Notes: generated from the sequence alone by a model not told the origin. 64,000 nucleotides of DNA from a virus (IMGVR_UViG_3300031994_000013:103251-167250), one strand, 5' to 3'. Positions 33,944-49,834 are shown, numbered from the stretch's first letter. Program-made: numbers and translations.

Positions 33944-33944
33944 C

Positions 33945-34696: not shown

Positions 34697-34697
34697 T

Positions 34698-34770
34698 TGC
34701 GGGATGGCCAAGTGGTTAAGGCAATTGGCTCATAACCAATAGACCGTGGGTTCAAATCCCACTCCCGCTA
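34698..34770 (+). tRNA. tRNA-Met(CAT), initiator-like
   Basis: loop CTCATAA; 1:72 mismatch; lacks the three G-C anticodon-stem pairs. Confidence 0.85.
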
Positions 34771-34775
34771 TTTAG

Positions 34776-35396
34776 TTGTCGGTATTCTTCTGTAAAAACC
34801 GTCACTGCTGGTCAGTTCTACGATGCAGAAAGCAGTATAAACACGGGGCTGTAGAAAAGATAAAGCGAAAAGGTAGAGGCACTGCCTGGGTTCGAGTCCC
34901 AGCGGGTGGCGTGGAGCGTAGAGCCAAAACCCTGATGCACTTAGAGTCTAGCTTCGCTTGAGGGCGGCCACCCAAGAGCGCATACTGAGCCCATAGAGAG
35001 TGGGCGGTGGGGCACGCCACCTTAAACTTAAAGGTGCATCCGCATATCGTTTGCGGTATATAACCATTCTTTGAAATGGTAATCTAGAGGCTATGGTAAG
35101 AGGACCAGATAAGTAGTTGATAGTGAAACAATAACCTTGGCTGAAAAAGAGGATGGAAGGAAAAGGCCCGATTCCTTACCAAATAGCGCTAAAAATTGGT
35201 AAAGCGATGCGGTTCAATCGCACCTCTCACACAGTGTAGGCCACATTGCCTTTGGTGGGTTTGTATTTGGGTAAGACACCTGAATATTGGCAAAGGCGCA
35301 AATGCGTCGGAAAGCCCAATTTCCCAACATACTTTCATGCGTGGGTGGAATAACAAGAGAAAGCGCAGCTTTCGGTCTGTGGTTAATAAAACCGAA
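34776..35396 (+). ncRNA. putative large ornate ncRNA
   Basis: about 620 nt, GC-richer than flanks, many hairpins, embedded T-arm. Confidence 0.6.
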
Positions 35397-35456
35397 TAGG
35401 CGGTAGCAGCAATACTTATAGAAAATTTTGGGAATTAAAATTTTTTATGCCGCCTA
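35397..35456 (+). ncRNA. CAGCAA/Y-like RNA 1
   Basis: TAGGCGGTA/TGCCGCCTA stem + CAGCAA. Confidence 0.65.
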
Positions 35457-35463
35457 GTTATGT

Positions 35464-35535
35464 GGCGTGTTAGTCAAGTGGTAAAGATAACTGGTTTTCA
35501 CCCAGTTGGCTGGAGTTCGACTCTCCAACACGCTA
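35464..35535 (+). tRNA. tRNA-Glu(TTC)
   Basis: cloverleaf, loop TTTTCAC. Confidence 0.9.
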
Positions 35536-35854
35536 TATTGGCAACGTCCGTTACAATTGCTAGCGCGAGCGAGTATGAAAAGACTACGCTTGGGGCGACC
35601 TCTGAGCTAATCCGGAAAGGAAAGCGTGCGGCGGCTAGGCGTCGTAGAAAGTCCAAACTTTCTATGGTAAGGAAAAACTTATTTAATATTGCCACCCAAT
35701 GGGAGCCTCTAAATAAGTCAAGAGTAGAAAAACCCTAGTATTTTTATTGGAATAGAGGGTAATCTTTTGCGGAGATTACGGAAAATGAAAACCGCTCCCG
35801 CCGAACTGCCGGTAGTAGCAAACACCTATTCGTAGGTAAAGGCAGCAGTTTTAA

Positions 35855-35927
35855 CAAGGTGTATCGTAGTAGCTAACGGGCGTCACTTGGGATGACGAAA
35901 TCGGGAGTGCAAATCTCTCCACCTTGA
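35855..35927 (+). tRNA. tRNA-Pro(TGG)
   Basis: cloverleaf, loop CTTGGGA. Confidence 0.88.
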
Positions 35928-36210
35928 TTTCTGCTTGTGTTTAATGAGCACGAGCCTTGTAAAAGAAAATATAGTTCAGCGGGATACTGGCTTATACTAG
36001 TTGACATTTTCTTTAATACAATCTCCAGCGTGAGTAAAAACCGCCTTGGACTGGGTGAGATGCCTATCGTTGCGGCCGCCAACGAAGTAACGTAAACAGT
36101 TATGAGCGGTTATAATTACCTTGCTATCAGGTCTTAATTTAGGATAGCTACTTATAGGTAAGACTATACGGGTGCGGCGTTCGTCAGCTCAGAGATAGCA
36201 TGCCGAATTT

Positions 36211-36351
36211 GCCCGGTTAGCTCAGTCGGTAGAGCATGCGGCTGTGACAGAGAGATGATTTGGTAATCATGTGAGGGACGCCCACGTTGCGAGTTCAATT
36301 CTCGCCTCTGTATTAACCGCAGTGTCGGGGGTTCGAGCCCCTCACCGGGCG
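36211..36351 (+). tRNA. tRNA-Asn(GTT) interrupted by tRNA-like insert 36246-36313
   Basis: TGCGG CTGT|TAA CCGCA after removal. Confidence 0.9.
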
Positions 36352-36450
36352 GTCAAGTTGGAGGATAGAACAGGCAGCTATCGCCCATTGTTAGGAGATG
36401 CGGGAGTGTCGCCCCGCCCAGCATTAATTTTATAAGAATGAGGTAAATTT

Positions 36451-36999
36451 ATGGCTCTAAAAATTCTCAGCCCATGGCAGGTTTGGTATGCTGATGTAAA
36501 GGCAATGTTTCAGGAAGATAATGAAATTGGTGTAATATTTGATAATGATACATTAGAGCTTACTGTGTATGTAGAGAATGCAGATAAGGCTGATGCCCTA
36601 GGACAGCTTCTACCTACTGAAAAGCATTTTGGTAATCAGGTTGTAAAGGTTAGCGTCATTCCCGCGAATGTACCTAAGACCGCATTAAAGCTAAATCGTG
36701 CGAATCTTTATGAAAGGGCATTTGCTGATAATCCTGCACTAGAAAAGGTAGTGACAATTGAAGGCGTTATGTCTAATACACTAACTTATGTTGTCTTTAA
36801 GAAACAAGTAGTACAGTATTATATTGATGACCTTGGCGATATCTATGGTAATAGAACTACTTTGTATCAAGAGATTGCAAAGAATATATTTGAAGCAGCG
36901 GAAGGCGTGTTTTTCTGTACGGCAAATGAAACAGAATTTAAGTTAAATATGACTAATCATGGTTGGATTACAACTACTTGTTGTAGTTCAAGTAATTGA
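36451..36999 (+). CDS. hypothetical phage protein
   Basis: 182 aa, VFKKQVVQYY.DDLGD. Confidence 0.7.
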   Translation: MALKILSPWQVWYADVKAMFQEDNEIGVIFDNDTLELTVYVENADKADALGQLLPTEKHFGNQVVKVSVIPANVPKTALKLNRANLYERAFADNPALEKVVTIEGVMSNTLTYVVFKKQVVQYYIDDLGDIYGNRTTLYQEIAKNIFEAAEGVFFCTANETEFKLNMTNHGWITTTCCSSSN

Positions 37000-37058
37000 C
37001 TTTTTTCTAAATTTATGCTATAATAAATATATCAAAAGGGAACGAAAGTTCCCAATAT

Positions 37059-37130
37059 GGCCCTATGGTCTAATGGCTATGATACGTGACTGTCTATCAC
37101 GAGGTTGCAGTTCAATTCTGCGTAGGGTCG
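37059..37130 (+). tRNA. tRNA-Asp(GTC)
   Basis: cloverleaf, G73. Confidence 0.9.
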
Positions 37131-37138
37131 TTGCCTTA

Positions 37139-37258
37139 AAGACGGTTCAGCAATTATTTTGAAAATTTATGCAGTATAATAAAGGGGCGGGTTCGAATCC
37201 CGCAGCATAAGGTGGGCACTTATGTTTGGTGTAGCGGTAGCATTCATTTCGCCGTCTT
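37139..37258 (+). ncRNA. CAGCAA/Y-like RNA 2 with permuted tRNA domain
   Basis: AAGACGG/CCGTCTT; T-arm, closed acceptor, D-arm order. Confidence 0.8.
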
Positions 37259-37264
37259 GATTTT

Positions 37265-37352
37265 CCTACTCAAGCATAATTGGTACATGCCACGGCCTTA
37301 TAAGCCGGAGACCCTCACAAGGTTAGTCCACGTTCAAGTCGTGGGAGTAGGA
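37265..37352 (+). tRNA. tRNA-Ile(TAT) with long variable region
   Basis: CCTACTC/GAGTAGG, loop CTTATAA, A73. Confidence 0.8.
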
Positions 37353-37355
37353 TTT

Positions 37356-37472
37356 TAGACCTGTCAGCAATTATTTCTTTTGCATGTGGAGCACGTATGT
37401 GATGGTTCGAATCCATCTTTGGGCCGATGCGCCCAAATAGCTCAATGGTAGAGCGCGTAATAAGTGGGTCTA
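37356..37472 (+). ncRNA. CAGCAA/Y-like RNA 3 with permuted tRNA domain
   Basis: TAGACC/GGTCTA; GATGGTTCGAATCCATC, TTTGGGC/GCCCAAA, TAGCTCAATGGTAGAGC. Confidence 0.8.
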
Positions 37473-37551
37473 GTTTTTATATGGAACTAATCTATCCTGA
37501 GTTCCTGCGGTTCAAGGATAGGGCGGTGGCTGCCCAAAGTCGCAATTATAT

Positions 37552-37669
37552 GGCCCCTTAGCCCAATTGGCAGAGGCAATAGACCATCAATAGCCAGAGC
37601 GAAATGAGGTCATCACTCATATTGATGTTCAAAATCTATCAAGTATCAGTTCGAATCTGATAGGGGCTA
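37552..37669 (+). tRNA. tRNA-Leu(CAA) interrupted by mini-tRNA insert 37585-37628
   Basis: ATAGA C|TCAAAA TCTAT after removal. Confidence 0.85.
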
Positions 37670-37748
37670 TTAAAAAAATCGCGGGACGCGAAGAAAAAAG
37701 AGTAATGCGTCTGCTTATATAATACTATTTATGTAGGAGGCGATAATT

Positions 37749-38354
37749 ATGAAAAAATGGGAAAAATTCTCTGAAAAAGAGTTGCTTGAGATTATTCAAA
37801 ATAGTCGAAGTTATAGAGAAGTCGCTCAAAAATTAGGTTATAATCCTGATAGTGGTAGTGGTATGAAAGCTATTAAGGATATGATAGAGACGAAACAATT
37901 TGATATATCGCATTTTTTAGGGCAGGGTTGGAATAAAAATAATTTTGATTATTCGCGTTTCCAGTATGGGAAAAATATTAAAGCCGTATTAATGTTAGAT
38001 GCTTTAATTAATTTACGCGGCAGAAAATGTGAAAAATGCGGTTTAACAAAATGGGAAAATTTTCCTATTCCACTAGAAGTACATCATATTGATGGAGACC
38101 ATTTGAATAATACATTAGATAATTTACAAATTCTTTGCTGCAATTGTCATGCTTTAACAGCGAATTTTAAAGGACGAAATCAGCTTAGCGTAGAACGACA
38201 AAATGAAAAAGTATCTGAAGAACAATTAGTAGAAGCATTAAAGACAACTTCTAATGTTCGTCAAGCTCTTTTAAAAGTTGGCTTGACTAGTCGTGGGCAC
38301 AATTATGATAGAGCATATGATTTGATATATAAATATCAAATAAAACAACAATAA
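37749..38354 (+). CDS. HNH homing endonuclease
   Basis: CEKC, LEVHHIDGDHLNN..NLQILCCNCH. Confidence 0.9.
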   Translation: MKKWEKFSEKELLEIIQNSRSYREVAQKLGYNPDSGSGMKAIKDMIETKQFDISHFLGQGWNKNNFDYSRFQYGKNIKAVLMLDALINLRGRKCEKCGLTKWENFPIPLEVHHIDGDHLNNTLDNLQILCCNCHALTANFKGRNQLSVERQNEKVSEEQLVEALKTTSNVRQALLKVGLTSRGHNYDRAYDLIYKYQIKQQ

Positions 38355-38359
38355 TATTA

Positions 38360-38462
38360 TAGGCGTTTTCAGCAATTACCTTTATAGGTTATGGGTTCGA
38401 GTCCCATTTTGCAATCCTTTTTGCGAATCGTCCAATAGGTAGGACAATAAATAAGACGCCTA
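38360..38462 (+). ncRNA. CAGCAA/Y-like RNA 4 with permuted tRNA domain
   Basis: TAGGCGTTT/AGACGCCTA; ATGGGTTCGAGTCCCAT, TTTGCAA/TTGCGAA, GTCCAATAGGTAGGAC. Confidence 0.8.
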
Positions 38463-38791
38463 GTATTTTAAAGATGGATTTTTTCCATCTTATTTTTATA
38501 ATTGACTTTTCTCTAAAATTATGATATAATTTTTTTAGAAAAAAGGAAATGAGGAAATAATATGGATAAGGAAACTCTAAGTAGCACTGCGACAAAAAGT
38601 CAATTTATTGATTCTATTTATAATTGGTTAATGCGCACGCTCGATGAGAAGGGCAACGGACAATATAAGGAATGTTTTCAAAAAGAGGGCTCAAGTATAA
38701 TTTGTTCTCTTCCAGATAATTATTTTAATAGTTATACTATTCCTCATGGCACTAAAATTGAAATGAAATTTATTAGTAAAAAGGGATAATA

Positions 38792-39226
38792 ATGAAAATT
38801 TATACTTCTTATTTCGCGCAAATGCGTAATTTTCCTAAAAATCTTGTTTCGCTTTCAACCGCAGTTTGGAATCCTAAATGGTTGCCGCTTGGGCGCGATA
38901 AGCAAGGTCATATTTGGCTAGATATTCCGCCGCTAAAGCCAGGATATAATTGTAATGGCTTATGTAATGGAAAATGTAATCCAAAGCATCCACAGGATTG
39001 TGCTTTTCTTCAAGAATATCGCAAACAGTTGAACGGTATAGATATTCATAATATTCTAAATGAATTACAAGTTTTAAAAAATGATATTGAAGTTGCGGAG
39101 AGCCTAGAGAATGTAGAGTTTGTGCTATTATTTTTTGAGACTCCGGATAATCCTTGTAGTGAGCGGCAAGTCGTTATTGAATGGCTTAAAGAAAATAATA
39201 TCGAAACTGAGGAATGGAGAAAATGA
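38792..39226 (+). CDS. DUF488-like protein
   Basis: MKIYTSYF, LLFFETP..CSER..W. Confidence 0.6.
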   Translation: MKIYTSYFAQMRNFPKNLVSLSTAVWNPKWLPLGRDKQGHIWLDIPPLKPGYNCNGLCNGKCNPKHPQDCAFLQEYRKQLNGIDIHNILNELQVLKNDIEVAESLENVEFVLLFFETPDNPCSERQVVIEWLKENNIETEEWRK

Positions 39227-39719
39227 TAAAAATTATTAAGCATGGGCACGCGCAATATCATATGACATGTAAATTTTGTGATTGTTTATTCTCTTTTGAA
39301 GACAGTGATATAAAATTTTCTGGTAATCAGCGAGATTGGATAGAATATATCGAATGCCCAGAATGCGGGCATGAGATTGATATTGTTAATCGTGCGTTCT
39401 ATAAGTTTAAGGAGAGTAAAGACTAATATAATGAAAGATAGGAAAATTTTTTTTATAGCAGTGTTAATTGCTATATTACTTTTTATAGGCGTAGTATTTT
39501 TACAAGAATCGTCCTGTAACATAGTATATAATAATGGCATTTGTACAAGATGCGGAGGACACTATATTTTTCAGCAGGCGGTAGGACATCGATATAATAT
39601 TCGATATATTTACCAATGTGATAAATGTGGCAAGTTAATTGAAATTAATTCTATTCGTTAATTATTTGACTTCTTTCTAAATTTATGCTATAATTATTAT
39701 AGAAAGTGAGGGAAAGAAA

Positions 39720-40067
39720 ATGAAGGAATACAGTATGAAATCTCATAATCGCCGCGCTCATCAGCGTTGGCTTAATAAGTTTTGCCGCGATGTTAATAAA
39801 TCTATTTATGATGATAATCTGTGGCGCGGGCGCTTTGTTGTAGAACAGGTTTCTACTCAGATGGATTGGTTTGAGGATAAAAGCGGTGGTATCCTTCGTT
39901 GTGTTCTTCGCTTTCGTGATAAGAAAACTGGCTGTACTAAGCTTTGTTATACCGATTGTCTTGAAGTTGCTTGGAATATGTTTTTTCAGATGAATGACTT
40001 TATTGTAAAAGATTGTGCTGTTTGGGATAAGGAAGACCCTTATAAGGAGATTGAATCATGGAGATAA
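39720..40067 (+). CDS. hypothetical phage protein
   Basis: promoter and RBS upstream; DNLWRGRF. Confidence 0.65.
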   Translation: MKEYSMKSHNRRAHQRWLNKFCRDVNKSIYDDNLWRGRFVVEQVSTQMDWFEDKSGGILRCVLRFRDKKTGCTKLCYTDCLEVAWNMFFQMNDFIVKDCAVWDKEDPYKEIESWR

Positions 40068-40265
40068 AGAGACCCGTTACTGTAGAGTTTAATTATTATA
40101 ATGATAATAACGAATTTGATGACGATGTTAATTTAACTTTTAGAACTACGCCAGATATGACTATTGGGCAATTACACGCTTTTTGTAAGCGTTTTGCTAT
40201 TGCACTTAGTTTTTCACCAAAGCAGGTTGAAGAAGCTTTTGGTGAAGATATAGAAGATAGAATTT

Positions 40266-40350
40266 AGAAGGGTGCCTGAGTGGTCAATAGGAGCGGTTTG
40301 CTAAATCGTCGTAGGGTAACCTACCGCAAGTTCGAATCTTGTCCCTTCTG
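40266..40350 (+). tRNA. tRNA-Ser(GCT)
   Basis: class II cloverleaf, G73. Confidence 0.9.
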
Positions 40351-40431
40351 TTCGCCAATTTAACTGGTTGGCGCGCCAGCTATGGATTAAATAGCGACCC
40401 AGCTCGCGGGCATTCTAAATAGCGAGCACGT

Positions 40432-40503
40432 ACCCTTCTAGGCTAACGGAAAGACCATACGGCTACGAACCGTAAAATGAAAGTTCGATTCTTTCGGAGG
40501 GTG
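40432..40503 (+). tRNA. tRNA-Arg(ACG)
   Basis: TACGG CTACGAA CCGTA; imperfect D stem. Confidence 0.8.
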
Positions 40504-40511
40504 TCAATTAT

Positions 40512-40621
40512 GCGGTGGTATCCAAGCAGACAAAGGGGCCAACCGGTAAGTTTGGTGCCTACGCCGGTATGCTAGCTAGAACCGTGGGCTTCGCAGGTGC
40601 AAATCCTGACCCGCCGCACCA
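40512..40621 (+). tRNA. aberrant Tyr-like tRNA with enlarged variable arm
   Basis: GCGGTGG/CCGCCGC-ACCA; loop CGGTAAG. Confidence 0.5.
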
Positions 40622-40629
40622 TTTATTAT

Positions 40630-40713
40630 GCGTCAGTGTGACTAGTAGCGAGGTCAGGTGACTGTAAATCACCCACATTAGAAACATCGGTGGTGCAATT
40701 CCATCCTGGCGCA
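40630..40713 (+). tRNA. tRNA-Tyr(GTA)
   Basis: GGTGA CTGTAAA TCACC. Confidence 0.85.
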
Positions 40714-40720
40714 TTAGCCG

Positions 40721-40792
40721 AGACCAGTCAGCAATAATTGTATTTTTTGCTAGAAATGCAGCGGGTCGGCTCCGCCTAAGATGAACTGGTCT
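40721..40792 (+). ncRNA. CAGCAA/Y-like RNA 5
   Basis: AGACCAGT/ACTGGTCT + CAGCAA. Confidence 0.7.
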
Positions 40793-40798
40793 AGTTTT

Positions 40799-40946
40799 GT
40801 GCCCGTAGCTCAGTTGGTAGAGCACTTGACTTTGGGGTAGTAATGTAAAGAGCATACTATTAGAGACGTCTAATAGAGGACAAGGTGCAATACCTTGATA
40901 CTCCACCATAATCAAGGGGTCGCGAGTTCGAGCCTCGCCGGGCACA
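40799..40946 (+). tRNA. tRNA-Lys(TTT) interrupted by tRNA-like insert 40834-40908
   Basis: CTTGA CTTT|TAA TCAAG after removal. Confidence 0.9.
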
Positions 40947-40950
40947 TTAT

Positions 40951-41022
40951 AGGAGCTTAGGACAATGGCTAGTCTTTCTGTCTCCAAAACAGACGATGGG
41001 CGTTCAAATCGCTCAGCTCCTG
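40951..41022 (+). tRNA. tRNA-Trp(CCA)
   Basis: cloverleaf, loop CTCCAAA. Confidence 0.9.
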
Positions 41023-41038
41023 TCACTTATGAAAAAAT

Positions 41039-41114
41039 GCGTCTGAACCCTGACGGTCGGGGGAGGGCCTGCAAAACCCTTTTTTATTAGTTGGTTCAAC
41101 TCCAACCAGGCGCT
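41039..41114 (+). tRNA. tRNA-Cys(GCA)
   Basis: loop CTGCAAA, U73. Confidence 0.85.
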
Positions 41115-41842
41115 TAAAGGAGAGATAATATTATGAATGAACTTAAAAGATTAGTTAACCAAAAGACTGACCGCCCCGTAACACCTACGACTACAACAAC
41201 CGTGCCAGTCTCACAGTCTGTAACAGCCACTTCCCTTCAATATGGTTGGATTTGTCCTAAATGTGGCTCTGTGATGGCACCAAATCAAACAAGTTGTATT
41301 TTCTGCATTCCAACTTTTAATGTTACGACTGCGACGCCAAATATGTCACCTGTAGTAATTTGTACTAGTAAAGGTTATAGTCGGGACTGAAATATTTGAC
41401 TTTTATTCAAATTTGTGCTATAATATATACATAAAGAATGAAAGAAAGGATTGATAACAGTATGCGTAAGTTGGTTTTTTCTTCTTCTTGGAGTAGGGTT
41501 AAGCAAGCGAAGATGCTAGATGACCCTCAGTAACTGGCGCTTTATCATCAGTAGGTGATACGAAATTACGGTAAGTCGTTATACGGCGCCACCGTTTTTT
41601 TAAAAAAAGAAAGGTAGAATAAGTTATGTTTAGTTATGTAGTTACTTTTTTCGACAATGAAATTAGAGCAACCACGACCGAAAAGGGCATTGTGGCGGCG
41701 GAAACCTATGGCAAAGCCGCGGATAGGCTTGTGAGCTTTTATGGAAAATCTTTTCTAATGACTATGGCTCTTACTGAACTTAATGACATTCTAACCGAAG
41801 AAGAAATTACAGAAGAGTTTGAAACTCAGGGAGAAGATTAAA

Positions 41843-42088
41843 ATGTATCATCGTACTCATATTCGTTTAATTACACAAACCGATGCAGCAAATTTCGTAG
41901 CGAGTCTTAATCGTGATGGCACGACTGACCACTATGTGCTTGAAACAGTAGATGGTAAGGTCCGTGTTAGTGCCCGTTCATTACTTGGCGTGCTTTATTT
42001 TGTTTCAGAGCATAATAAGGAAACTTATTTAGTTAATGAAACTAATGATGGAGTGATTCCAAGCGGTATCGACCAGTATCGTATTTAA
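41843..42088 (+). CDS. HPr-like protein
   Basis: AANFV...VSARSLLGVL (Ser46-like motif). Confidence 0.6.
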   Translation: MYHRTHIRLITQTDAANFVASLNRDGTTDHYVLETVDGKVRVSARSLLGVLYFVSEHNKETYLVNETNDGVIPSGIDQYRI

Positions 42089-42101
42089 TGCGATACTTTG
42101 A

Positions 42102-42232
42102 TGGCGTGTAGCCAAGTGGTTAAGGCACAGGACTTTCAGGCAATAGCATAAGTAATGCCATAGAATAATAGTTCAAATCTATTTTGCCTGTGACTCCTGT
42201 ATTCGTAGGTTCGACCCCTACCACGCCAGCCA
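42102..42232 (+). tRNA. tRNA-Gln(TTG) interrupted by tRNA-like insert 42137-42191
   Basis: CAGGA CTTT|GAC TCCTG after removal; encoded CCA. Confidence 0.92.
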
Positions 42233-42237
42233 TTTAT

Positions 42238-42299
42238 TAGGCTTTGTCAGCAACTATTACAAAAATTTGACTTGAAATCAAAGGAACAAAGAAAGCCTA
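42238..42299 (+). ncRNA. CAGCAA/Y-like RNA 6
   Basis: TAGGCTTT/AAAGCCTA; internal TTTGA CTTGAAA TCAAA. Confidence 0.75.
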
Positions 42300-42309
42300 G
42301 AAATTTTTA

Positions 42310-42409
42310 TAGACCAGCACAGCCATTTATTTTAACAATGGATAAATTATTTTTTTCTCAATAAAAAAAATATAGAAGGTTCAAATCCTTCAAAATTAAA
42401 ACTGGTCTA
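42310..42409 (+). ncRNA. CAGCCA/Y-like RNA 7
   Basis: TAGACCAG/CTGGTCTA; CTCAATA loop + T-arm GAAGGTTCAAATCCTTC. Confidence 0.7.
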
Positions 42410-42764
42410 GTTTTTATTACAAGAAAGGACGCAAAATAATGGAAGTAATGTATCATCGTAAGAACGGTAAGCGCTATGAAGTTTATGATTATATAACAGA
42501 TAAGCATACCATTGCTATTTGTTACGATACGGCACAGGCGGGGCAGTGCGGCCAGGGTTGGTGTAGAATTCCTTTGAAAGAATTGGTTCCAGAATGTCAT
42601 GCAAATAAGACTACAGGGCAATTTGAGTCTAACACTATTAAAAATGCCATTAAACGAAATTTACAACCAGTAGCTTGGCGTTGTACTGATGGTACAGTAT
42701 TTGACCATTCTAAGATTGATGAAGCAATTGAATATCAAAGAACACTTATGACGACGGAGCAAGA

Positions 42765-43205
42765 ATGAGACAGTTAATAATCGCGCGAAAAGATTTACAG
42801 ATGAGCCCTGGTAAATTGGCGGCACAAGTAGCACATGCAAGTTGGGCATTTTTATCGCAGCAAATTCGCAGCTGTACTATTAACGAACAAGATACTCAAA
42901 ATACGTGGATTAAATTATGTATTAATACTGATACGTATAATGAATGGTTTTGTGGTATCTTTACAAAAACTGTTTGCGAAGCTAAAAATTATAATCAACT
43001 GATGAAAGCAGTTGACTATGCACGCGAATTGGGGTTAGAAGAGGGAGTAGATTTTTTCCTCATTAAAGATGCTTGTCTCACGGAGCTTACTCCCGAAGAA
43101 ACTGATGAAAATGGTGTTGGACGCACATTAACTTGTATTGGTTTTCGTCCATTACCTGACGAAATCGCCCATGCGATTTCAAAGCATTATCAACTTTATA
43201 AGTAA
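42765..43205 (+). CDS. pth2: peptidyl-tRNA hydrolase Pth2 family
   Basis: RKDLQMSPGKLAAQVAHA, IKDACLTE, TCIGFRP. Confidence 0.9.
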   Translation: MRQLIIARKDLQMSPGKLAAQVAHASWAFLSQQIRSCTINEQDTQNTWIKLCINTDTYNEWFCGIFTKTVCEAKNYNQLMKAVDYARELGLEEGVDFFLIKDACLTELTPEETDENGVGRTLTCIGFRPLPDEIAHAISKHYQLYK

Positions 43206-43208
43206 ATA

Positions 43209-43338
43209 ATTGTGGTGGCGGAATAGGTAGACGCTAGACGGTTTGAACCCGTGCATCAAGGAAGACTTGGCTTGGCTATGAGGTCATAGATTTTACTCAG
43301 AAGGAAATCATGTAAGGTGCAAATCCTTACCCACAATT
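43209..43338 (+). ncRNA. tRNA-like RNA (Leu-type D/T arms, no normal anticodon arm)
   Basis: ATTGTGG/CCACAAT, GGCGGAATAGGTAGACGC, GTAAGGTGCAAATCCTTAC. Confidence 0.7.
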
Positions 43339-43427
43339 TAGAATGTAACGGCTGATTACATATACATTTTCGCAATCTATATAGATACAATCAAGTTACC
43401 CCATGCGATGCAAGGTAACATCAGCCA

Positions 43428-43513
43428 TCGGCCTACACAGCAATTAATTTCAAGAAAATTCTATCTGTTGAAGAAAGCATATTCTAGCGGGTTGAAAACC
43501 CGTAATAGGCCGA
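43428..43513 (+). ncRNA. CAGCAA/Y-like RNA 8
   Basis: TCGGCCTA/TAGGCCGA; GCGGG TTGAAAA CCCGT. Confidence 0.75.
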
Positions 43514-43518
43514 GTTAT

Positions 43519-43708
43519 GCTCTTGTAGCTCAATGGTAGAGCAGCGCACTTGTCGAGTTAGTTTAAAGTAAAACACCCGAATCACAGGGAAAAGACCGTA
43601 TGATAAACTAATTGATTGACGAATCAATTAGGCGAAGATATGTGAGTTCGTAACTCACACTCGGCTCCAGTAATGCGCAGGTTGTAGGTTCAAGTCCTAT
43701 CGGGAGCT
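43519..43708 (+). tRNA. tRNA-Thr(TGT) interrupted by tRNA-like insert 43552-43669
   Basis: GCGCA CTT|GTAA TGCGC after removal. Confidence 0.9.
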
Positions 43709-44526: not shown

Positions 44527-45012
44527 ATGCGAAAGCCTATTCTTTATATACTCTGCGGTTGTCCAGGATGCGGAAAAACATATTGGGCAAATAAATTTAT
44601 GTATAATCTTATTAATACAAAGTATGTTTCGCGCGATGAAATTCGCCTTTCTTTACTTAATAATGATGAAGAATATTTTTCACACGAAGAAGAAGTGTTT
44701 ACTAAATTTGTAGCTATGATAAGAGCTAATTTAGTGGATGGATATGATTGTATTGCAGACGCCACTCATTTAAATGTAAAATCTCGCAAAAAGCTTATCC
44801 ATGCTCTTGATTTTTATGGTAAATTAGATTGTCAAATTATTTTTGTATATTTCAACGCTCCTTTGGAAGTATGTCTTGGCCGCAACGAACAGCGTGAAGG
44901 TCGTGCTCGTGTTCCTGTAAATGTAATTCAATCTATGCGAGAACGCTTTCAAAAGCCAGCTATGACAGAGGATGAAAGATGTATTGGACTTATGCTAATG
45001 AAAGGATATTAA
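44527..45012 (+). CDS. polynucleotide kinase-like P-loop protein (AAA_33)
   Basis: GCPGCGKT, SRDEIR, DATH, RNEQR. Confidence 0.85.
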   Translation: MRKPILYILCGCPGCGKTYWANKFMYNLINTKYVSRDEIRLSLLNNDEEYFSHEEEVFTKFVAMIRANLVDGYDCIADATHLNVKSRKKLIHALDFYGKLDCQIIFVYFNAPLEVCLGRNEQREGRARVPVNVIQSMRERFQKPAMTEDERCIGLMLMKGY

Positions 45013-45281: not shown

Positions 45282-45290
45282 GAGGCAATT

Positions 45291-45956
45291 ATGGGAAAGA
45301 TTTATAAAGTTACAAATAAAATTAATGGTAATATTTATATTGGCCAAACACGACAACCAATTAATACTCGTTGGTTAAAGCACTGTTATTCAGCAGAAAC
45401 CTCTAATGATAAAGATTATTTTTGTCCTCTACATAATGCTATTCGTAAATATGGACGAGATAGTTTTCTAATAGAAGAAATTGAAGACTGTGATAATGAT
45501 TTATTAAATGAACGTGAACGTTATTGGATTCAATTTTATGATAGTTATAATAATGGTTATAATGCCGCTTTGGGTGGAGAAGGGCATACTAAATATGACT
45601 ATGATAAAATTATAGATTATTTTTTAAAACATGGCAATAATCTTTTAGCTACTTGTCAAGAATTTAATATTTATGACCAAGTGGTGTATACAGCTTTACA
45701 ATCTAAAAATATTGATTATAAAGCATTAAAAAATATAAATCCAAAATGTAAATATGATAAATGGATTCTATTAGTAGAACACAATCTTATTTTCAAACAC
45801 ATAACGGACATTGACCTTTATTTACATAAAAATAATGCACATGGAAATATACGACGATGCCTAAATGGAATTACAGAAAAAGCTTATGGCTATCATTGGA
45901 AGGAGATAGAAAAAGATGGAAATCTTTTTAACCTCGGATACTCATTTTTCACATAA
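45291..45956 (+). CDS. GIY-YIG homing endonuclease
   Basis: KIYKVTN..YIGQT, RW..H, E..WI, GYN; NUMOD1-like AYGYHW tail. Confidence 0.9.
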   Translation: MGKIYKVTNKINGNIYIGQTRQPINTRWLKHCYSAETSNDKDYFCPLHNAIRKYGRDSFLIEEIEDCDNDLLNERERYWIQFYDSYNNGYNAALGGEGHTKYDYDKIIDYFLKHGNNLLATCQEFNIYDQVVYTALQSKNIDYKALKNINPKCKYDKWILLVEHNLIFKHITDIDLYLHKNNAHGNIRRCLNGITEKAYGYHWKEIEKDGNLFNLGYSFFT

Positions 45957-46509
45957 TCAACAATTTATATATGAGTCCCGTGGTTTTACAAATGTTCAAG
46001 ACATGAATGAGACAATAATGGAAAATTGGAATAAAATTGTACCATATGACGCACTTATTTATCATCTTGGAGATATGGCATTAAATAATTTAGATGATGC
46101 AATTAAATATATTAAAAATTTAAATGGTAAAATTATTTGGCTTCGGGGTAATCATTGTACTGATAATAAAATTACTAAAATTCTTGAAAACTGTCCAAAT
46201 GTAACAATGCCAAATGAAATGTATGCCACTGTACTGAAATATAGGAAACTAACTTGTTATCTTTCACACTATCCTACCTTGACAGCCAATTACGATGATA
46301 AACATTTCAGCCAGCATGTAGTGAATTTTCACGGTCATACTCATCAGCAAACTAACTGGCTTAATCCAACGAATCCATTTATGTATCACGTGGGAATGGA
46401 TTCTCATAATTGCACACCAATCCATATTGAAGAGGCAATAAGTGACATTCGCAACAGATGGAATGAAATCGGTCAGCTTCCAGTTTCTATGCAGCCAGAA
46501 GATATATGA
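45916..46509 (+). CDS. calcineurin-like metallophosphoesterase
   Basis: SDTH, HLGD, GNH, SHYP, HGHTH. Confidence 0.9.
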   Translation: MEIFLTSDTHFSHNQQFIYESRGFTNVQDMNETIMENWNKIVPYDALIYHLGDMALNNLDDAIKYIKNLNGKIIWLRGNHCTDNKITKILENCPNVTMPNEMYATVLKYRKLTCYLSHYPTLTANYDDKHFSQHVVNFHGHTHQQTNWLNPTNPFMYHVGMDSHNCTPIHIEEAISDIRNRWNEIGQLPVSMQPEDI

Positions 46510-46521: not shown

Positions 46522-48228
46522 ATGAAATATGCATGTTATGCAGGTACGCGTAACATATATCAAGATATGTTGCCTTCTGCAAAATCTCTTTTAATACATT
46601 CGGATGTAGATAAAATATATTTTTTAATCGAGGATGATGAATTTCCTTATGATTTGCCGCCCGAAATTGAATGTATAAATGTAAGTAATCAAGAATGGTT
46701 TGATAAAGATGGACCAAATTACAATAATTCATGGTCTTATATGATATTGTTAAAGGCCGCATTAACAAAAATTTTCCCGCAACTTGATAAAATTTTAATG
46801 CTTGATGTAGATACTATAGTAAATGAAAATATATCAAATTTATGGGATTTAGACTTAACTAATTATTATTTCGCGGCAACTCGTGAATCACATAAATCTA
46901 CTAAAAAATTCTTATATACAAATATAGGCATAGCATTATTTAATTTAAAAAAATTGCGTGAGGATTGTAAGGATGATGAATTAATTCATTCGCTCAATAT
47001 GTATCATTACGCTTTTCCAGAACAAGATTGCTTTAACAATTTATGTCAAGGTTATATCTATCAGCTCCCTTCAGATTATAATATTAGTAATTATAGCCTT
47101 GATGCAAAGCATCGCAAAATTATACATTATGCAGCACTTAAAAATTGGCAGCATGAGCCATTAGTTGAAAAGTATAAAGATATAAAAATTAAACGTAATA
47201 TACCTGATAAATATGGATTAGATATTATTATTCCTACATATAAAAATATAAAAGATTTAGAAGTAACAATTAAATCTGTATATGATGAAGAAATTTTTGC
47301 ATTAGGAAAAATGTATAATTTTCCCGTTACTATTACTGTAGTCGATGATTGTTCTGATATTGACTATTCAGAAATTAATACAAAATATCCAAAAGTTAAT
47401 TTCATTATGAAATCACGTAATGAAGGGCCGGGAATGGCACGCCAAGATGGTATAAATGCTACAAATGGTTCTCATATTTTATTTATAGATACTGGAGATT
47501 ATATTTTATCTAAATATGCTATATTGCAAGTAATACTTACTATTCTTTCAGATACTACGCCTTATCTATATTTATGGCGTTGGTTGAATGCGGAATGGAA
47601 TAGCTATTCTGGTAATACATTACATTGTTTGCATGGAGCAGTTTATGAAAGAGAATTTCTGGAATTATATAATATTCATTTTTGCCCTGAATCTTCTTAT
47701 GCTAACGAAGATGTCGGATTTAATCGTGCATGTATGCTTGTAATTAAACAATTAAATTTATATGATAATACAATTAAATTACATTTTTATGGTACGCCTA
47801 TATATATGTATACATATGATAAAAATTCTATTACTCATATTAATAATAAGGAATATATGTATACAAAACAATTAAAAGGATTATTGTTAAATGAGCGGCA
47901 TGTAATTAAAATTGCCAAGAAAAATAAAATTAATTCTTTCTTTATATGGGAGGATATTAGTTTTGTAATGGTACGCTTGTGGTATGATTTTTGGTATCTT
48001 ATGAAATATGCGCCAGAAACAGGACAAGAGCATTGGAATCTTTTACGCGAATTTTATCGTGATTTATATAAAGTATATCAGCATAATGATACTACAACGC
48101 AGCAACATGCTATTGGAATTTATACAAAACAATTGCAAAAAATTGGCGTAGCTCATATAAATTTTTCACGCTTTCTAACCGATCTTGAAAATGCAGAATA
48201 TATACCAGCTTTATACTTTGACTTTTAA
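46522..48228 (+). CDS. GT8 + GT2 glycosyltransferase fusion
   Basis: LDVD, PEQD, IIHYA then IIIPTY, VVDDCS, GPGMARQ, FIDTGD, NED. Confidence 0.85.
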   Translation: MKYACYAGTRNIYQDMLPSAKSLLIHSDVDKIYFLIEDDEFPYDLPPEIECINVSNQEWFDKDGPNYNNSWSYMILLKAALTKIFPQLDKILMLDVDTIVNENISNLWDLDLTNYYFAATRESHKSTKKFLYTNIGIALFNLKKLREDCKDDELIHSLNMYHYAFPEQDCFNNLCQGYIYQLPSDYNISNYSLDAKHRKIIHYAALKNWQHEPLVEKYKDIKIKRNIPDKYGLDIIIPTYKNIKDLEVTIKSVYDEEIFALGKMYNFPVTITVVDDCSDIDYSEINTKYPKVNFIMKSRNEGPGMARQDGINATNGSHILFIDTGDYILSKYAILQVILTILSDTTPYLYLWRWLNAEWNSYSGNTLHCLHGAVYEREFLELYNIHFCPESSYANEDVGFNRACMLVIKQLNLYDNTIKLHFYGTPIYMYTYDKNSITHINNKEYMYTKQLKGLLLNERHVIKIAKKNKINSFFIWEDISFVMVRLWYDFWYLMKYAPETGQEHWNLLREFYRDLYKVYQHNDTTTQQHAIGIYTKQLQKIGVAHINFSRFLTDLENAEYIPALYFDF

Positions 48229-48307
48229 TCAAAATTATGTTATAATAAATACATAAAGAAAAAACCTGCGGTCTTGACAAAAGACTAAGATGAAAAGGAG
48301 AAAAAAT

Positions 48308-49834
48308 ATGGCTAATACTTTTATGAACGCGATGAAGTCCCAGAATAATTTTAAGCTTACAGAGAATCAAGCAGTAGCTAAGAAGTCAACCATGTCTAAG
48401 CTTTATGACCTATTTGCTCTTGGCGGAGCTTACCGTACCCGTAGTGAGAGTGATTGTGTGCTTCTCTTTAAGGAAGCCTATATGGAGAGCCCTCGATATG
48501 CGATGAAGTGCCTGACGTACCTCAGAGATATTTTGGAGGGTCAAGGCGAGCGTCGTTTCTTCCGTGTATGCCTGCATTGGCTTGGTAATAACTATCCTGA
48601 AGCCGCCCGCCAGAATCTGCGTGAGTGGGTAGATGGTAACTTTATCCGTTGGGACGACCTGTTTGTACTCTTCGATACTCCTGTTGAGCGTGAAGTAATG
48701 GCACTCATTCGTCATCAGCTAACCCGCGATATGGCTATTTATAATGATGATCCTCGGGCATCGGTATCTCTTTGCGCGAAGTGGATGCCTTCCGAGAATA
48801 CATCTAGTGCTACTACTCGTCATAACGCTCGCCGCGTTATGGCTGCTCTTGAGCTTACTCCTCGTGAGTATCGTAAGATGCTCTCTATGCTGCGTGAGCG
48901 TATTAAGGTAGTAGAGCGTCTTATGTCTCAGAACCGTTGGGAAGAAATTGACTTCTCTAAGCTTCCTTCTCGCGCTGGTCTTATCTATCGTAATGTGTTT
49001 AAAAGTAAGGGCCTGATTGCCGAAAAGTACAAGGCTTTTGCACAGGATAAGACTACTAAGGTCAATGCTGGTACTCTATATCCTTATGATGTAGTGGCGG
49101 CCGCCCTTAAGTGTATGGGTAATGGTTACGGTGAGCCTGCCCTGAACGATACCGAGCGCCTTATGGTAAACAAGTATTGGGACAACCTTACTGATTACTT
49201 TAAGGGCGCAACTCTCAACGCTATGGTAGTTTGCGATACCTCTGGGTCGATGACTTGGAGCGGCAATGGCACCGTAAAGCCTATTGACGTTGCTGTATCT
49301 CTTGCACTCTATACCGCAGAGCGTGCTAAGGGGCCTTTTGCAAATCACTATATCTCCTTCAGCCATACTGCTCGTCTAGTTGAGACTAAGGGTGTGGATT
49401 TTTGCGATAAGGTAGCACGCATCGTAAGTACCAATCTTTGTGAGAATACTAATCTACAAAGCGTATTTGACCTAGTGCTAAATACTGCGATGCAGAATAA
49501 TGTTGATCCAGAAGATATGCCTAAGACTCTTATCGTCGTAAGTGATATGGAAGTTGATTCAGCAACTGGGCACTATGGTTATCAAAAGACGGACTTTATG
49601 TCTTCTATTCGTCAGAAGTGGGAAGCTAGGTGCGGCGGCTGGTATGATTTTCCCAACCTTGTGTATTGGGATGTCAATGCTCGCAATAACACCTTCCTTG
49701 AGGATTCTAAGACTGGCGTAACCTTCGTAAGCGGTTGTTCTCCTGTACTATACGAGCAAATTATGTCTGGTAAGACGTCTATAGATCTAATGCTTGAAAA
49801 ACTAAATAGTGAGAGATATAACGCTATTCACTAA
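48308..49834 (+). CDS. DUF2828 / TROVE(Ro60)-like protein with vWA domain
   Basis: RDI..GQGERR, RWDDL, AKWMPSE, LYPYD, VCDTSGSM, SDME, SGCSP. Confidence 0.85.
   Translation: MANTFMNAMKSQNNFKLTENQAVAKKSTMSKLYDLFALGGAYRTRSESDCVLLFKEAYMESPRYAMKCLTYLRDILEGQGERRFFRVCLHWLGNNYPEAARQNLREWVDGNFIRWDDLFVLFDTPVEREVMALIRHQLTRDMAIYNDDPRASVSLCAKWMPSENTSSATTRHNARRVMAALELTPREYRKMLSMLRERIKVVERLMSQNRWEEIDFSKLPSRAGLIYRNVFKSKGLIAEKYKAFAQDKTTKVNAGTLYPYDVVAAALKCMGNGYGEPALNDTERLMVNKYWDNLTDYFKGATLNAMVVCDTSGSMTWSGNGTVKPIDVAVSLALYTAERAKGPFANHYISFSHTARLVETKGVDFCDKVARIVSTNLCENTNLQSVFDLVLNTAMQNNVDPEDMPKTLIVVSDMEVDSATGHYGYQKTDFMSSIRQKWEARCGGWYDFPNLVYWDVNARNNTFLEDSKTGVTFVSGCSPVLYEQIMSGKTSIDLMLEKLNSERYNAIH

Follow-up and report, generated by a model that had tools for sequence, protein, structure and literature searches.

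The window analysed here, a 64,000-nt stretch of viral DNA (IMGVR_UViG_3300031994_000013:103251-167250), contains eight repeated elements that are probably genes for small, stable RNAs resembling YrlA and YrlB, whose stem and adjoining motif would dock onto a Ro60-like ring protein of the phage. We propose that these RNAs and the protein, a member of the DUF2828/DUF7788 branch, constitute a new and widespread variant of the Y RNA/Ro60 system, for which both binding and function are putative. The ends of each RNA would pair over 7–10 bp (5ʹ N-A-G-R-C..., 3ʹ ...G-Y-C-U-Nʹ, then an unpaired G), leaving a single-stranded (A)CAGCAA directly beyond the 5ʹ strand. Stem and motif together would be the docking site for the ring protein encoded at 48290-49834, in analogy to the GNCGAA stem and Ro60/Rsr. 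The interior would be an exchangeable module: a permuted tRNA elbow, a lone mimic of an anticodon stem-loop, or a simple hairpin.

Table 1. Elements and neighbouring features in the window
Feature	Position	Strand	Basis
c1: minimal form with 9-bp closing stem, CAGCAA, a single long A/U hairpin and 3ʹ G	35397..35457	+	R1 32.8 bits, E 3e-5; fold
Promoter-like site before tRNA-Asp, c2, tRNA-Ile, c3, c4	36996..37024	+	consensus scan
c2: YrlA-type cargo (T arm, acceptor-like hairpin, D arm)	37139..37259	+	R1 24.2 bits; fold; RNAalifold consensus
c3: YrlA-type cargo	37356..37473	+	Rfam YrlA; R1 14.8 bits, E 0.54; fold
c4: YrlA-type cargo	38360..38463	+	Rfam YrlA; R1 26.2 bits
c5: two-hairpin short form	40720..40794	+	R1 14.4 bits, E 0.66; fold
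c6: short form with anticodon-stem-loop-like hairpin	42238..42300	+	R1 46.3 bits (training-set member); script
c7: CAGCCA variant with T-arm-like hairpin	42310..42411	+	R1 21.3 bits (match at 42310-42410); fold
Peptidyl-tRNA hydrolase PTH2, between c7 and c8	42765..43205	+	Pfam PTH2 2.4e-20
c8: stem UCGGCCUA/UAGGCCGA with degenerate T-arm-like hairpin	43428..43514	+	R1 18.5 bits; fold
P-loop kinase, AAA_33/polynucleotide-kinase type	44527..45012	+	Pfam AAA_33 1.6e-20
Calcineurin-like phosphoesterase	45916..46509	+	Pfam Metallophos_2 7.8e-8
Near-consensus sigma-70-type promoter (TTGACT, 17 nt, TG, TATAAT) just 5ʹ of the Ro-like gene	48218..48246	+	11 of 12 positions in consensus scan; consensus match only
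Ro60-like protein gene, 514 aa, proposed RNA partner	48290..49834	+	Pfam, AlphaFold, Foldseek
Possible RNA ligase (weak match)	57433..58761	+	Pfam RNA_ligase 22.3 bits

Eight elements share a covarying RNA structure

The first-pass annotation had listed eight copies interspersed with tRNAs; all eight are real, all lie among tRNAs, and the starts it gave are right to within 1 nt. Our covariance model, R1, was built mostly from related phages: among its 24 short training members, only c1 and c6 come from the window. With filters off and both strands scanned, the eight best R1 matches in the whole window were exactly c1–c8 (E 1.9e-8 to 0.66). The ninth was on the minus strand (E 1.1), and the remainder of the 167-kb genome gave a single weak additional match (63634-63712, E 0.31). 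None of the eight intervals is called as a tRNA by ARAGORN or by Rfam RF00005. Genes for HNH and GIY-YIG homing endonucleases also lie near the copies.

In each copy, a closing stem of 7–10 bp (NAGRC...GYCUNʹ) is followed 0–3 nt later by CAGCMA, and the 3ʹ G is unpaired. We predict that this stem is the protein-binding site. The minimum-free-energy fold is closed by the 5ʹ/3ʹ stem in 8/8 copies, so that paired ends, a general criterion for Y RNAs, are found throughout, with covariation. Fold z-scores range from -0.87 to -4.81; since the value does not go below -1.4 in three copies, folding energy alone is not decisive. The stem sequence varies among copies while pairing is kept, as had been described. 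CAGC(A/C)A begins at position 10 or 11 in every copy, CAGCCA being the form in c7. The description of the 3ʹ end held only in part. (C)TAG is present in six copies but is replaced by CTTG in c2 and CGAG in c8. At least four T within 10 nt follow six of the window copies. In the family as a whole, a T-run follows only 61 of 373 members, and so is a local trait of the window and no feature of the family. None of the 18 terminator-like sites in our scan coincides with a closing stem.

The covariation extends beyond this genome to related phages. All 166 stem cells are paired in a MAFFT alignment of the 24 short members, with double changes at 5/7 pairs (36 cells, versus 9.1 in shuffles). Among 101 distinct model-aligned members, 98.4% of cells are paired and double changes occur at all seven pairs. 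We also used a test that does not select for pairing, in which the search pattern fixed only five of the seven stem pairs; it gave 103 matches in 79 analysed loci, 92 of which pair at both free positions, where ~14% would be expected by chance. RNAalifold, applied to 12 members from 10 phages, recovered the closing stem, T arm, acceptor-like hairpin and D arm, with compensatory changes in 19 of 24 pairs. These data bear on the idea that the repeats represent small mobile elements bounded by terminal inverted repeats, or else cargo carried by the neighbouring homing endonucleases, as their copy number, their inverted termini (TAG...CTA) and the nearby HNH and GIY-YIG genes might suggest. We give that idea almost no credence: the stems covary instead of conserving a sequence, orientation is fixed (126 to 1), and the interiors are unrelated among copies.

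The copies are likely to be co-transcribed with the phage tRNAs, judging from promoter-like sequences. Besides the site ahead of c2–c4 (Table 1), the units holding c1, c5 and c6–c8 have comparable sites in front of them, at 34583, 39666 and 41396, and a terminator scan placed a terminator-like hairpin at 38471-38491, after c4. Metatranscriptome contigs match most of the region at 100% identity, in a form that is blind to RNA ends and may include DNA carry-over.

The Ro-like gene and its coupling to the RNAs

In its AlphaFold model (pLDDT 79.5), the protein encoded at 48290-49834 has the Ro60 fold: helical repeats form a ring, and a vWA domain bearing a MIDAS motif comes after it. Pfam assigns it to DUF7788 (2.7e-39) and DUF2828 (9.5e-29); Pfam TROVE (PF05731) has no match genome-wide, nor any for this protein at E <= 10. 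In a Foldseek search of the PDB, the 13 best matches are all Ro60/TROVE structures aligned over the full length (E 1.6e-8 to 7.3e-6; TM about 0.4–0.57), including those of Xenopus, human, Deinococcus and Thermus-phage Ro60, and from rank 14 onward only vWA domains are matched. The MIDAS residues D316, S318 and S320 do not vary among 18 homologues. Compared as profiles, the window protein and Bxz1 Ro aligned only over the MIDAS region, with a probability of 10%.

The RNA signature tracks this gene across distant phages, and the genomic coupling is tight. The two occur together in Bacillus, Mycobacterium, Staphylococcus, Listeria, Campylobacter and Felixounavirus phages, and in rumen and gut viral contigs. 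All 124 R1 matches at E <= 1, from 846 kb scanned on both strands, are on the strand of the Ro-like gene, and a strict script found 126 instances on that strand versus one on the opposite strand. Of 35 gene loci flanked upstream by at least 5 kb of sequence, 30 carry one RNA instance or more; of 115 instances, 110 are upstream of the gene. The association also holds in reverse. When contigs were chosen by the RNA pattern alone, 33/61 had the gene within 10 kb, always on the RNA strand (33/33) and within 209 nt in 17; in 14 of 15 further pattern contigs the gene is elsewhere in the record (11/11 among records at least 90% complete). It is absent from 10/10 contigs that have only unpaired, chance-like pattern matches. 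Because many of the compared loci belong to related phages, the co-occurrence partly reflects shared ancestry.

Copies adjoin the gene in Bacillus phage Tsamsa, Mycobacterium phage Silverleaf, Staphylococcus phage SEP9, Listeria phages LP-048 and cka15, Salmonella phage Mushroom and Campylobacter phage PC14. In whole-genome scans, every R1 match is beside the gene (five in Tsamsa, three each in Mushroom and SEP9). The distance between RNA and gene in other phages is 2–900 nt; in the window the copies are 4.8–12.8 kb upstream of the gene, on the common strand. Could the elements be leaders or operators of the Ro-like mRNA, acting in cis as, for example, autoregulatory binding sites, rather than free-standing RNAs? 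Ten copies in the pattern-derived contigs end 2–62 nt upstream of the gene, and those of Listeria, Campylobacter and Bacillus phages lie between promoter and gene. However, the nearest copy in the window is 4.8 kb away from a gene with its own near-consensus promoter, and copies are downstream of the gene in SEP9, Silverleaf and Mushroom. Copies are also scattered among tRNAs, up to eight per genome, with differing cargo, and their tRNA-like modules match those of YrlA, a known trans-acting RNA. Moreover, excision from the rsr transcript is also how canonical YrlA and YrlB arise (Chen et al. 2014, PMC4201824). We therefore consider a leader function improbable.

Another explanation is that the elements punctuate tRNA operons, as processing sites or weak terminators, and are unrelated to the Ro-like protein. 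All eight window copies are amid tRNAs, six of them with a T-run, and copies occupy inter-tRNA gaps in Tsamsa and Mushroom. Nonetheless, only a minority of family members have the T-run, and tandem copies in SEP9 and Silverleaf adjoin the gene with no tRNA array around them. The T4 and T5 genomes, which we scanned, have tRNA arrays but neither the RNA nor the Ro-like gene. A conserved single-stranded heptamer and tRNA-like cargo also exceed what a processing hairpin needs. We regard punctuation as quite improbable, and favour RNAs that act with the Ro-like protein.

Relation to known Y RNAs

The YrlA matches, the gene for a Ro60-fold protein and the genomic coupling support the earlier suggestion of a Y RNA-like layout, with a conserved stem and a variable module. 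As in YrlA and YrlB, the ends pair, a conserved motif lies at or after the 5ʹ strand, and several RNAs occur per locus, on the strand of a Ro60-fold gene and with RNA-repair genes as the surroundings. Long forms enclose a permuted tRNA mimic, as YrlA does (V, T arm, closed acceptor hairpin, D arm). The YrlA criterion of a T arm, acceptor-like stem-loop and D arm, plus V, applies to c2, c3 and c4 (3/8); the other five copies resemble short YrlB-like forms, that is, siblings without the permuted mimic. The Rfam comparison that had been suggested indicates kinship for c4 (YrlA, RF02553; 36.1 bits across the entire model, positions 1-114) and for the tRNA-like core of c3 (30.4 bits at 37393-37461), but neither reaches the 69-bit gathering threshold, and the other six copies have no YrlA match at E <= 10.

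There are also clear differences. GNCGAA, from the criterion GNCGAAN0-1G of Chen et al. 2014, is present in none of the eight copies, which bears out the first-pass view that their motif differs from the canonical Ro60 site; the family has (A)CAGCAA instead, and rarely CAGCGAA (3 of 373 members). A helix inside the closing stem of the YrlA model is unmatched by c4, and scores are about half the Rfam threshold. The putative partner is of the DUF2828/DUF7788 branch and not of Pfam TROVE. Up to eight copies are spread over 8 kb of tRNA array, and the cargo includes non-permuted D-anticodon-T bodies and lone anticodon-loop mimics. Finally, Chen et al. are reported to place a Y RNA no more than about 4 kb from its Ro60 orthologue (PMC4201824); the window copies lie outside that limit but agree in strand.

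Y RNAs have been described in Bxz1-type mycobacteriophages, Bacillus phage G, CcrColossus and, as Yrl1 and Yrl2, in Thermus phage phiLo (PMC12135203). These are likewise phage-encoded and adjoin a phage Ro60 homologue, with a 5ʹ/3ʹ stem flanking a motif-bearing internal loop, and phiLo Ro60 (9kop) is the top structural match of the window protein. In contrast to our CAGCMA, they carry GNCGA(A). All 22 phages in Table S2 of Chen et al. were picked by TROVE annotation. Y RNAs of the GNCGA type are found in Bxz1 and ET08, whose Ro is canonical TROVE by that selection, and in phiLo; an R1 scan of Bxz1 gave no match. This division suggests cognate pairing between RNA type and Ro branch. The T4 species 1 and 2 RNAs (rnaC, rnaD) are likewise annotated as small, stable RNAs of unknown role encoded with phage tRNAs, but T4 has no R1 match or Ro-like gene.

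Ro-like proteins of the present branch have already been noticed as LeBron gp53 (PMC13148394), cka15 CKA15_055 (PMC12282133) and Bas63 gp130 (PMC11482910). By tblastn, the LeBron and Listeria phage proteins belong to the family of the window protein; genus and gene position suggest that Bas63 gp130 does too. A conjecture in the Bas63 preprint is that Y RNAs are among the annotated tRNAs, and the cka15 paper suggests highly transcribed regions as possible Y RNAs. In the accessible text of the three papers, the RNAs, their motif and their structure are undefined. The copies in cka15 are at 25,289-25,552, away from the one highly transcribed non-coding region for which that text gives coordinates (26,236-26,727).

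Cargo and possible functions

What might the variable interior do? The cargo had been described as derived from tRNA, which is exact for c2, c3 and c4, where a T arm is followed by a closed acceptor hairpin and then a D arm. The description is partly true of c7 and less so of c5 and c8, which have a T-arm-like hairpin only. In c6 there is a hairpin shaped like an anticodon stem-loop (5-bp stem, 7-nt loop CUUGAAA), and c1 has no such element. Across the family, T-arm-like hairpins are enriched (103/374 cargos versus 58/7480 shuffled cargos), as are anticodon-stem-loop-like hairpins (107/374 versus 343/7480), whose commonest anticodon-like triplets are UUU and GUU (14 and 12 of the 107 members). 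In 200 of 374 members no tRNA-like hairpin is present, although the stem and motif are retained.

This enrichment would suit free decoys or sponges for host enzymes that cut or modify tRNAs, independent of the Ro-like protein, with the stem and motif serving stability or processing. Produced on its own, from a plasmid or from T7, the related Bas63 gp130 counters the Ppl defence (PMC11482910); at least the anti-Ppl activity needs no RNAs, which speaks for decoys and against the reading we favour. Decoys would, however, explain neither the near-obligate coupling to the Ro-like gene on a common strand nor the many members with stem and motif but no tRNA-like hairpin. We think it quite unlikely that the RNAs act in this way.

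If the RNAs instead load a Ro-like particle, the module could set which tRNA-recognising enzyme or RNA the particle meets, and during infection the particle may serve RNA surveillance, RNA repair or counter-defence. Nearby genes encode PTH2, a kinase, a phosphoesterase and possibly an RNA ligase. The kinase gene, located between the RNA copies and the Ro-like gene, may function in RNA repair; for the ligase candidate, both the PHA02142 OB-fold (23.9 bits) and RNA_ligase (22.3 bits) matches are under the curated cut-off of 27. A more specific idea, which we offer as possible but doubtful, is a modular display of tRNA parts. The closing stem and ACAGCAA would be a constant handle that loads the ring, and the cargo would present a tRNA elbow or a bare anticodon stem-loop whose 7-nt loop is near-canonical. 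Such cargo could be bait or a sensor for host defence nucleases that cut tRNAs, or an adaptor that delivers cleaved tRNAs to the kinase, phosphoesterase and ligase of the phage. If true, phages of Firmicutes, Actinobacteria and Proteobacteria would widely possess an RNA-guided particle for counter-defence. The RNA–protein pair itself occurs in many well-known phages, in which the RNA had stayed undefined.

Structure and cargo of the RNA family

All eight of the small-RNA elements (c1–c8) reported in the first-pass annotation are present on the plus strand, in an array of tRNA genes interspersed with small ORFs and other structured RNAs; several of the tRNAs found only by Rfam have long anticodon-loop insertions. 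The viral record is complete at 167,250 bp and has direct terminal repeats; the window is its final 64 kb, and the sequencing runs that contain the window carry the label sheep or goat gut. Both ends pair in the fold of each copy, as had been proposed, and the stem sequences vary from copy to copy with pairing kept, in agreement with the covariation described earlier. The closing stem pairs 5ʹ N-A-G-R-C-N-N with 3ʹ N-N-G-Y-C-U-N'. It is followed by a linker of 0–3 nt. In the wider family the last linker base is A in 310 of the 373 members; in the window it is T in five of the eight copies. The predicted CAGC(A/C)A comes next, at position 10 or 11 in all copies (CAGCAA; CAGCCA in c7), then an A/U-rich stretch and a variable cargo, and the RNA ends with the 3ʹ strand of the stem and an unpaired G. 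Lengths in the family are bimodal, ~60–70 nt and 110–120 nt.

Features of the window and their coordinates
Feature	Position	Strand	Description
c1–c8 (starts)	35397, 37139, 37356, 38360, 40720, 42238, 42310, 43428	+	Small-RNA elements
tRNA gene array	33.8–43.7 kb	+	10 tRNAs by ARAGORN, more by Rfam
Promoters (starts)	33406, 34396, 34583, 36996, 38502, 39666, 41396, 44019, 48218; 34298 without TG	+	Near-consensus: TTGACT, 17 nt, TG, TATAAT
tRNAs with ~45–120-nt anticodon-loop insertions	40799–40946, 43519–43708, 37552–37669; weaker 36218–36305, 42102–42190		
Skipping-rope RNA	36354–36425		51 bits, above Rfam gathering 36.7; inside tRNA array
Cow-rumen-3 match	35932–36076		66.3 bits, below gathering 86.7; inside tRNA array
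Cow-rumen-4 match	33439–33497		41.8 bits, below gathering 48.5
Run X5 RNA contig	33455–33834		Overlaps cow-rumen-4 match and ORF 33511–33846
ORF-free stretch	34772–35396 (especially 34787–35106)		~620 nt between tRNA-Met and c1; no ORF, no Rfam match
Non-coding stretch	41550–41595		After ORF 41133–41390, just ahead of a T-run
NAD salvage genes	1422–3982		Nicotinate phosphoribosyltransferase; NMN adenylyltransferase-type cytidylyltransferase-like/NAD synthase fusion
HNH-like endonuclease gene	37749–38354		Inside tRNA/Y-like RNA array
GIY-YIG-like endonuclease gene	45291–45956		Inside tRNA/Y-like RNA array
Ro-like ORF	48290–49834	+	514 aa; matches DUF2828 and DUF7788; own near-consensus promoter

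Aligning the eight complete copies with MAFFT mis-registered the stems, since the linkers differ in length, and these alignments were rejected as the basis of a covariance model. The model (R1) was therefore trained on 24 short family members from several phages, with only c1 and c6 from the window. In an unfiltered search of the entire window, plus and minus strands, R1 ranks the eight elements as the top eight; the ninth match has an E of 1.1, and the remainder of the 167,250-bp genome gives a single weak additional match. A megablast search of positions 35000–44000 against named phages gave no match.

The cargo had been described as tRNA-derived, and this holds for some copies only. In c2, c3 and c4 the modules stand in permuted order: first a T arm (GGUUCGAnUCC), then a closed acceptor-like hairpin of 7 bp, and last a D arm containing GG, the order that Chen et al. 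2014 give for the bacterial Y RNA YrlA (PMC4201824). The resemblance is partial in c7, which keeps a T-arm-like hairpin, and weaker in c5 and c8; c6 has a hairpin of anticodon stem-loop shape, and c1 has a long A/U hairpin only. The Rfam YrlA model aligns end to end with c4 at 36.1 bits, but its gathering score is 69; with c3 it aligns in the tRNA-like core only, far below gathering (30.4 bits). No other Rfam 15 family overlaps c1–c8 above chance level.

Similar modules recur across the family. A T-arm-like hairpin is found in 103 of 374 distinct instances from a strict script versus 58 of 7480 shuffled cargos, and a stem of at least 5 bp with a 7-nt loop Y-U-NNN-R-N in 107 of 374 versus 343 of 7480; 200 of the 374 have neither. 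In some members the cargo holds an entire tRNA body in permuted order, anticodon arm included; in others it holds a non-permuted D-anticodon-T body. For 12 long members from 10 phages, RNAalifold recovered the closing stem, T arm, acceptor-like hairpin and D arm, with compensatory changes in 19 of 24 pairs. UUU (14) and GUU (12) are the commonest anticodon-like triplets; as related phages share many of these sequences by homology, the counts serve as a lead only.

Several neighbouring features deserve mention in their own right. A typical group I intron is expected to be longer than the anticodon-loop insertions of the array tRNAs. The kinase, the phosphoesterase and the possible ligase of the phage might bear on these insertions. 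The HNH-like and GIY-YIG-like genes recall segB, which likewise sits within the tRNA cluster of T4. The window also has genes for NAD salvage.

The Ro-like protein and its genomic coupling to the RNAs

The Ro-like gene is predicted to encode a divergent Ro60-like protein, since a fold search reaches Ro60 where sequence methods fail. Modelled by AlphaFold from 18 homologues (pLDDT 79.5, pTM 0.75), the protein has Ro60/TROVE chains as all of its best 13 PDB matches, aligned over the full length and including Ro60 from Thermus phage phiLo, Xenopus and human, and Deinococcus Rsr; from rank 14 onward the matches are vWA domains only. The MIDAS residues D316, S318 and S320 are invariant among the 18 homologues. 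A phmmer search against PDB sequences gave chance-level matches only, and a sequence profile aligned with Bxz1 Ro in the MIDAS region alone, at a probability of 10%; the link to Ro60 comes from the fold search. There is no Pfam TROVE domain anywhere in the 167,250-bp genome, and the absence of a TROVE match from the Ro-like protein itself counts against a Y RNA-like reading of c1–c8. Genes for PTH2, a polynucleotide-kinase-type P-loop kinase, a GIY-YIG endonuclease, a phosphoesterase and a glycosyltransferase lie between the RNAs and the Ro-like gene, and further on past it is a weak RNA-ligase match, below the Pfam cut-off.

Coupling was assessed in both directions. Starting from the gene, we used protein relatives with 38–68% identity from 45 viral contigs. 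A search of both strands of 846 kb (Tsamsa, Silverleaf and the window in addition to these contigs) with R1 gave 124 matches with E ≤ 1, all 124 on the strand of the Ro-like gene. The strict script found 126 instances on the gene strand versus one on the opposite strand; this rule was adopted after looser scripts returned many chance stems (e.g. 31 on the wrong strand; 653 “instances” in another). Where the upstream flank is at least 5 kb long, 30 of 35 loci hold one or more instances; none of the 10 loci with a shorter flank does. Of 115 instances, 110 are upstream of the Ro-like gene. That the RNAs are mobile elements is very unlikely: the several copies per genome would fit, and the uniform orientation relative to one gene speaks against it. 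A cis-acting leader of the Ro-like gene is another improbable reading. The copies in the window are 4.8–12.8 kb from the gene, a distance that also counts against a Y RNA-like reading.

Starting from the RNA, we searched the viral collection with a sequence-only pattern (AAGAC, 4 N, ACAGCAA, 30–60 N, GTCTTG). At least 122 stretches matched, and 79 of 121 loci, those with full flanks, were analyzed. At the 79 loci, 92 of 103 matches pair at both stem positions left free, versus ~14% by chance. Among 61 contigs in which a match is fully paired, 33 have a Ro-like gene within 10 kb, on the same strand in all 33 and no more than 209 nt away in 17; the gene is found in 0 of 10 contigs with only unpaired matches. 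For 15 further contigs with no gene nearby, the gene is elsewhere in the record in 14, including 11 of 11 records at least 90% complete; the one without it is a fragment of 80% completeness. An improbable reading is that the RNAs are protein-independent decoys; the tRNA-like cargo speaks for it, and the presence of the gene alongside paired matches speaks against it.

Phage lineages and the relation to canonical Y RNAs

By tblastn, 705 named phage records match the protein; among them are Felixounavirus, P100/A511-type Listeria phages, Staphylococcus, Enterococcus and Campylobacter phages and cluster L mycobacteriophages. Counting R1 matches together with copies read by eye, the Bacillus phage Tsamsa has five R1 matches and a sixth copy, with CAGCGAA, seen by eye, among and after tRNAs and before the gene; the Listeria phages LP-048 and cka15 have three copies between promoter and gene; and the Campylobacter phage PC14 has two before the gene, seen by eye, that keep ACAGCAA with a different stem start. 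R1 missed both PC14 copies, in which the AGRC stem start is absent. The three copies in the Mycobacterium phage Silverleaf are directly downstream of the gene; the second of the three scores 39.8 bits with Rfam YrlA and carries CAGCAAUUA. Three tandem copies immediately follow the gene in the Staphylococcus phage SEP9. At least three copies lie among tRNAs after the gene in Mushroom (Salmonella, Felixounavirus). Positions among tRNAs would fit punctuation of the tRNA operon, an improbable reading. In whole-genome scans every match was beside a Ro-like gene, and T4 and T5, which have tRNA arrays without that gene, gave no match. In record G005 (the source of stretch L086), the Ro-like gene match at 133860–136462 is in two pieces ~1.1 kb apart (residues 6–84 and 83–513), and the gene may be interrupted by an insertion or intron.

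Y RNAs beside phage Ro genes were already known, as was the annotation of this branch as “Ro-like RNA binding protein”. All 22 phages of Chen et al. 2014 were picked by TROVE annotation (Table S2, PMC4201824): 20 Bxz1-type mycobacteriophages, Bacillus phage G and CcrColossus. GGCCGA-type motifs are present in the RNAs of these phages and in the three RNAs upstream of Bxz1 Ro; R1 found nothing at the Bxz1 locus. In phiLo, Yrl1 and Yrl2 have CGAA (PMC12135203). The first-pass annotation had called the motif non-canonical, and the window copies indeed have CAGCAA (CAGCCA in c7) in place of GNCGAA. The missing GNCGAA motif and the Rfam YrlA scores below gathering, the two formal marks of YrlA, both count against a Y RNA-like reading of c1–c8. 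Bxz1 and ET08, with canonical TROVE, and phiLo have GNCGAA, whereas phages with a DUF2828-type Ro-like protein have ACAGCAA. Given this split by phage group, there appear to be two cognate RNA-protein pairs, GNCGAA in phages with earlier-described Y RNAs and ACAGCAA with the DUF2828-type protein. A rare variant, CAGCGAA (3 of 373 family members), is a hint of a possible relationship between the two motifs. No Rfam 15 model covers the ACAGCAA family. In the openly available text of the literature on Y RNA and Ro-like phage genes, two papers, on Listeria cka15 and on Bas63, guess at Y RNAs close to such genes and neither defines them. Within this literature, we rate the family as a new, widespread version of the phage Y RNA/Ro system.

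Transcription and proposed function

RNA-library runs X3, X5 and X24, and run X4, were compared with positions 33000–50000. RNA-library contigs span most of the array; they carry neither RNA ends nor strand, so this coverage is not proof of discrete RNAs, and parts of the array with no contig are uninformative on expression. Splicing at the joints 40824/40917 and ~43235/43308 was considered and rejected: there are other letters between the two sides, and we read these contigs as other organisms' tRNAs. A copy of the near-consensus promoter stands at the start of every small transcription unit in the array and ahead of the Ro-like gene. The copies at 36996, 38502, 39666 and 41396, read directly, have a common conserved spacer of the form TTTnTCTAAAnTTAT.

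Three stretches stand out in the RNA libraries. Bin 34701–35267 has a summed contig depth of 339, 58 and 142 in three RNA libraries versus 39 in a DNA run, with contigs at 34786/34789 that start right after sequencing-adapter letters; the ORF-free stretch upstream of c1 may be an abundant discrete structured RNA. The 424-nt X5 contig has adapter letters flanking both ends of a 380-nt stretch. The stretch beginning at 41550, also marked by adapter letters, has a depth of 194.6 in X24. In cka15, the highly transcribed region with published coordinates differs in position from the ACAGCAA copies, and the supplement of that paper has no coordinates for the other two. The region with coordinates, reported as the most transcribed of that phage (2737–3228, minus strand, of stretch L178; record 26,236–26,727), has its own TTGACA/TATAGT promoter and lacks the ACAGCAA signature; it is a different ~500-nt non-coding RNA, located ~0.7 kb ahead of the three Y-like copies.

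What might these RNAs do? The layout proposed in the first-pass annotation, a conserved stem with a variable module as in Y RNAs, is supported by RNA structure, protein fold and genomic coupling, and the ACAGCAA RNAs are probably Y RNA-like partners of the phage Ro-like protein. From these observations we infer that the RNAs accumulate and that the stem and ACAGCAA would be the handle bound by the protein; the cargo could serve as an adaptor or mimic for tRNA-recognizing factors, and the particle could act in RNA surveillance, repair or counter-defence. Counting against a Y RNA-like role, the related protein Bas63 gp130 is reported to counter the bacterial defence Ppl and to protect alone (PMC11482910).

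The Ro60/Y RNA pair is long-studied and functionally unclear. To our knowledge, a bacterial RNA partner has been known only for canonical TROVE proteins. A second, much commoner phage branch of Ro-like proteins now gains a testable RNA partner, with a motif, a structure and a covariance model. Rfam 15 lacks the family, so hundreds of sequenced phages carry these genes with no annotation. With its modular tRNA-like cargo, the family suggests that Ro-type RNA surveillance is linked to the phage–host conflict over tRNAs.
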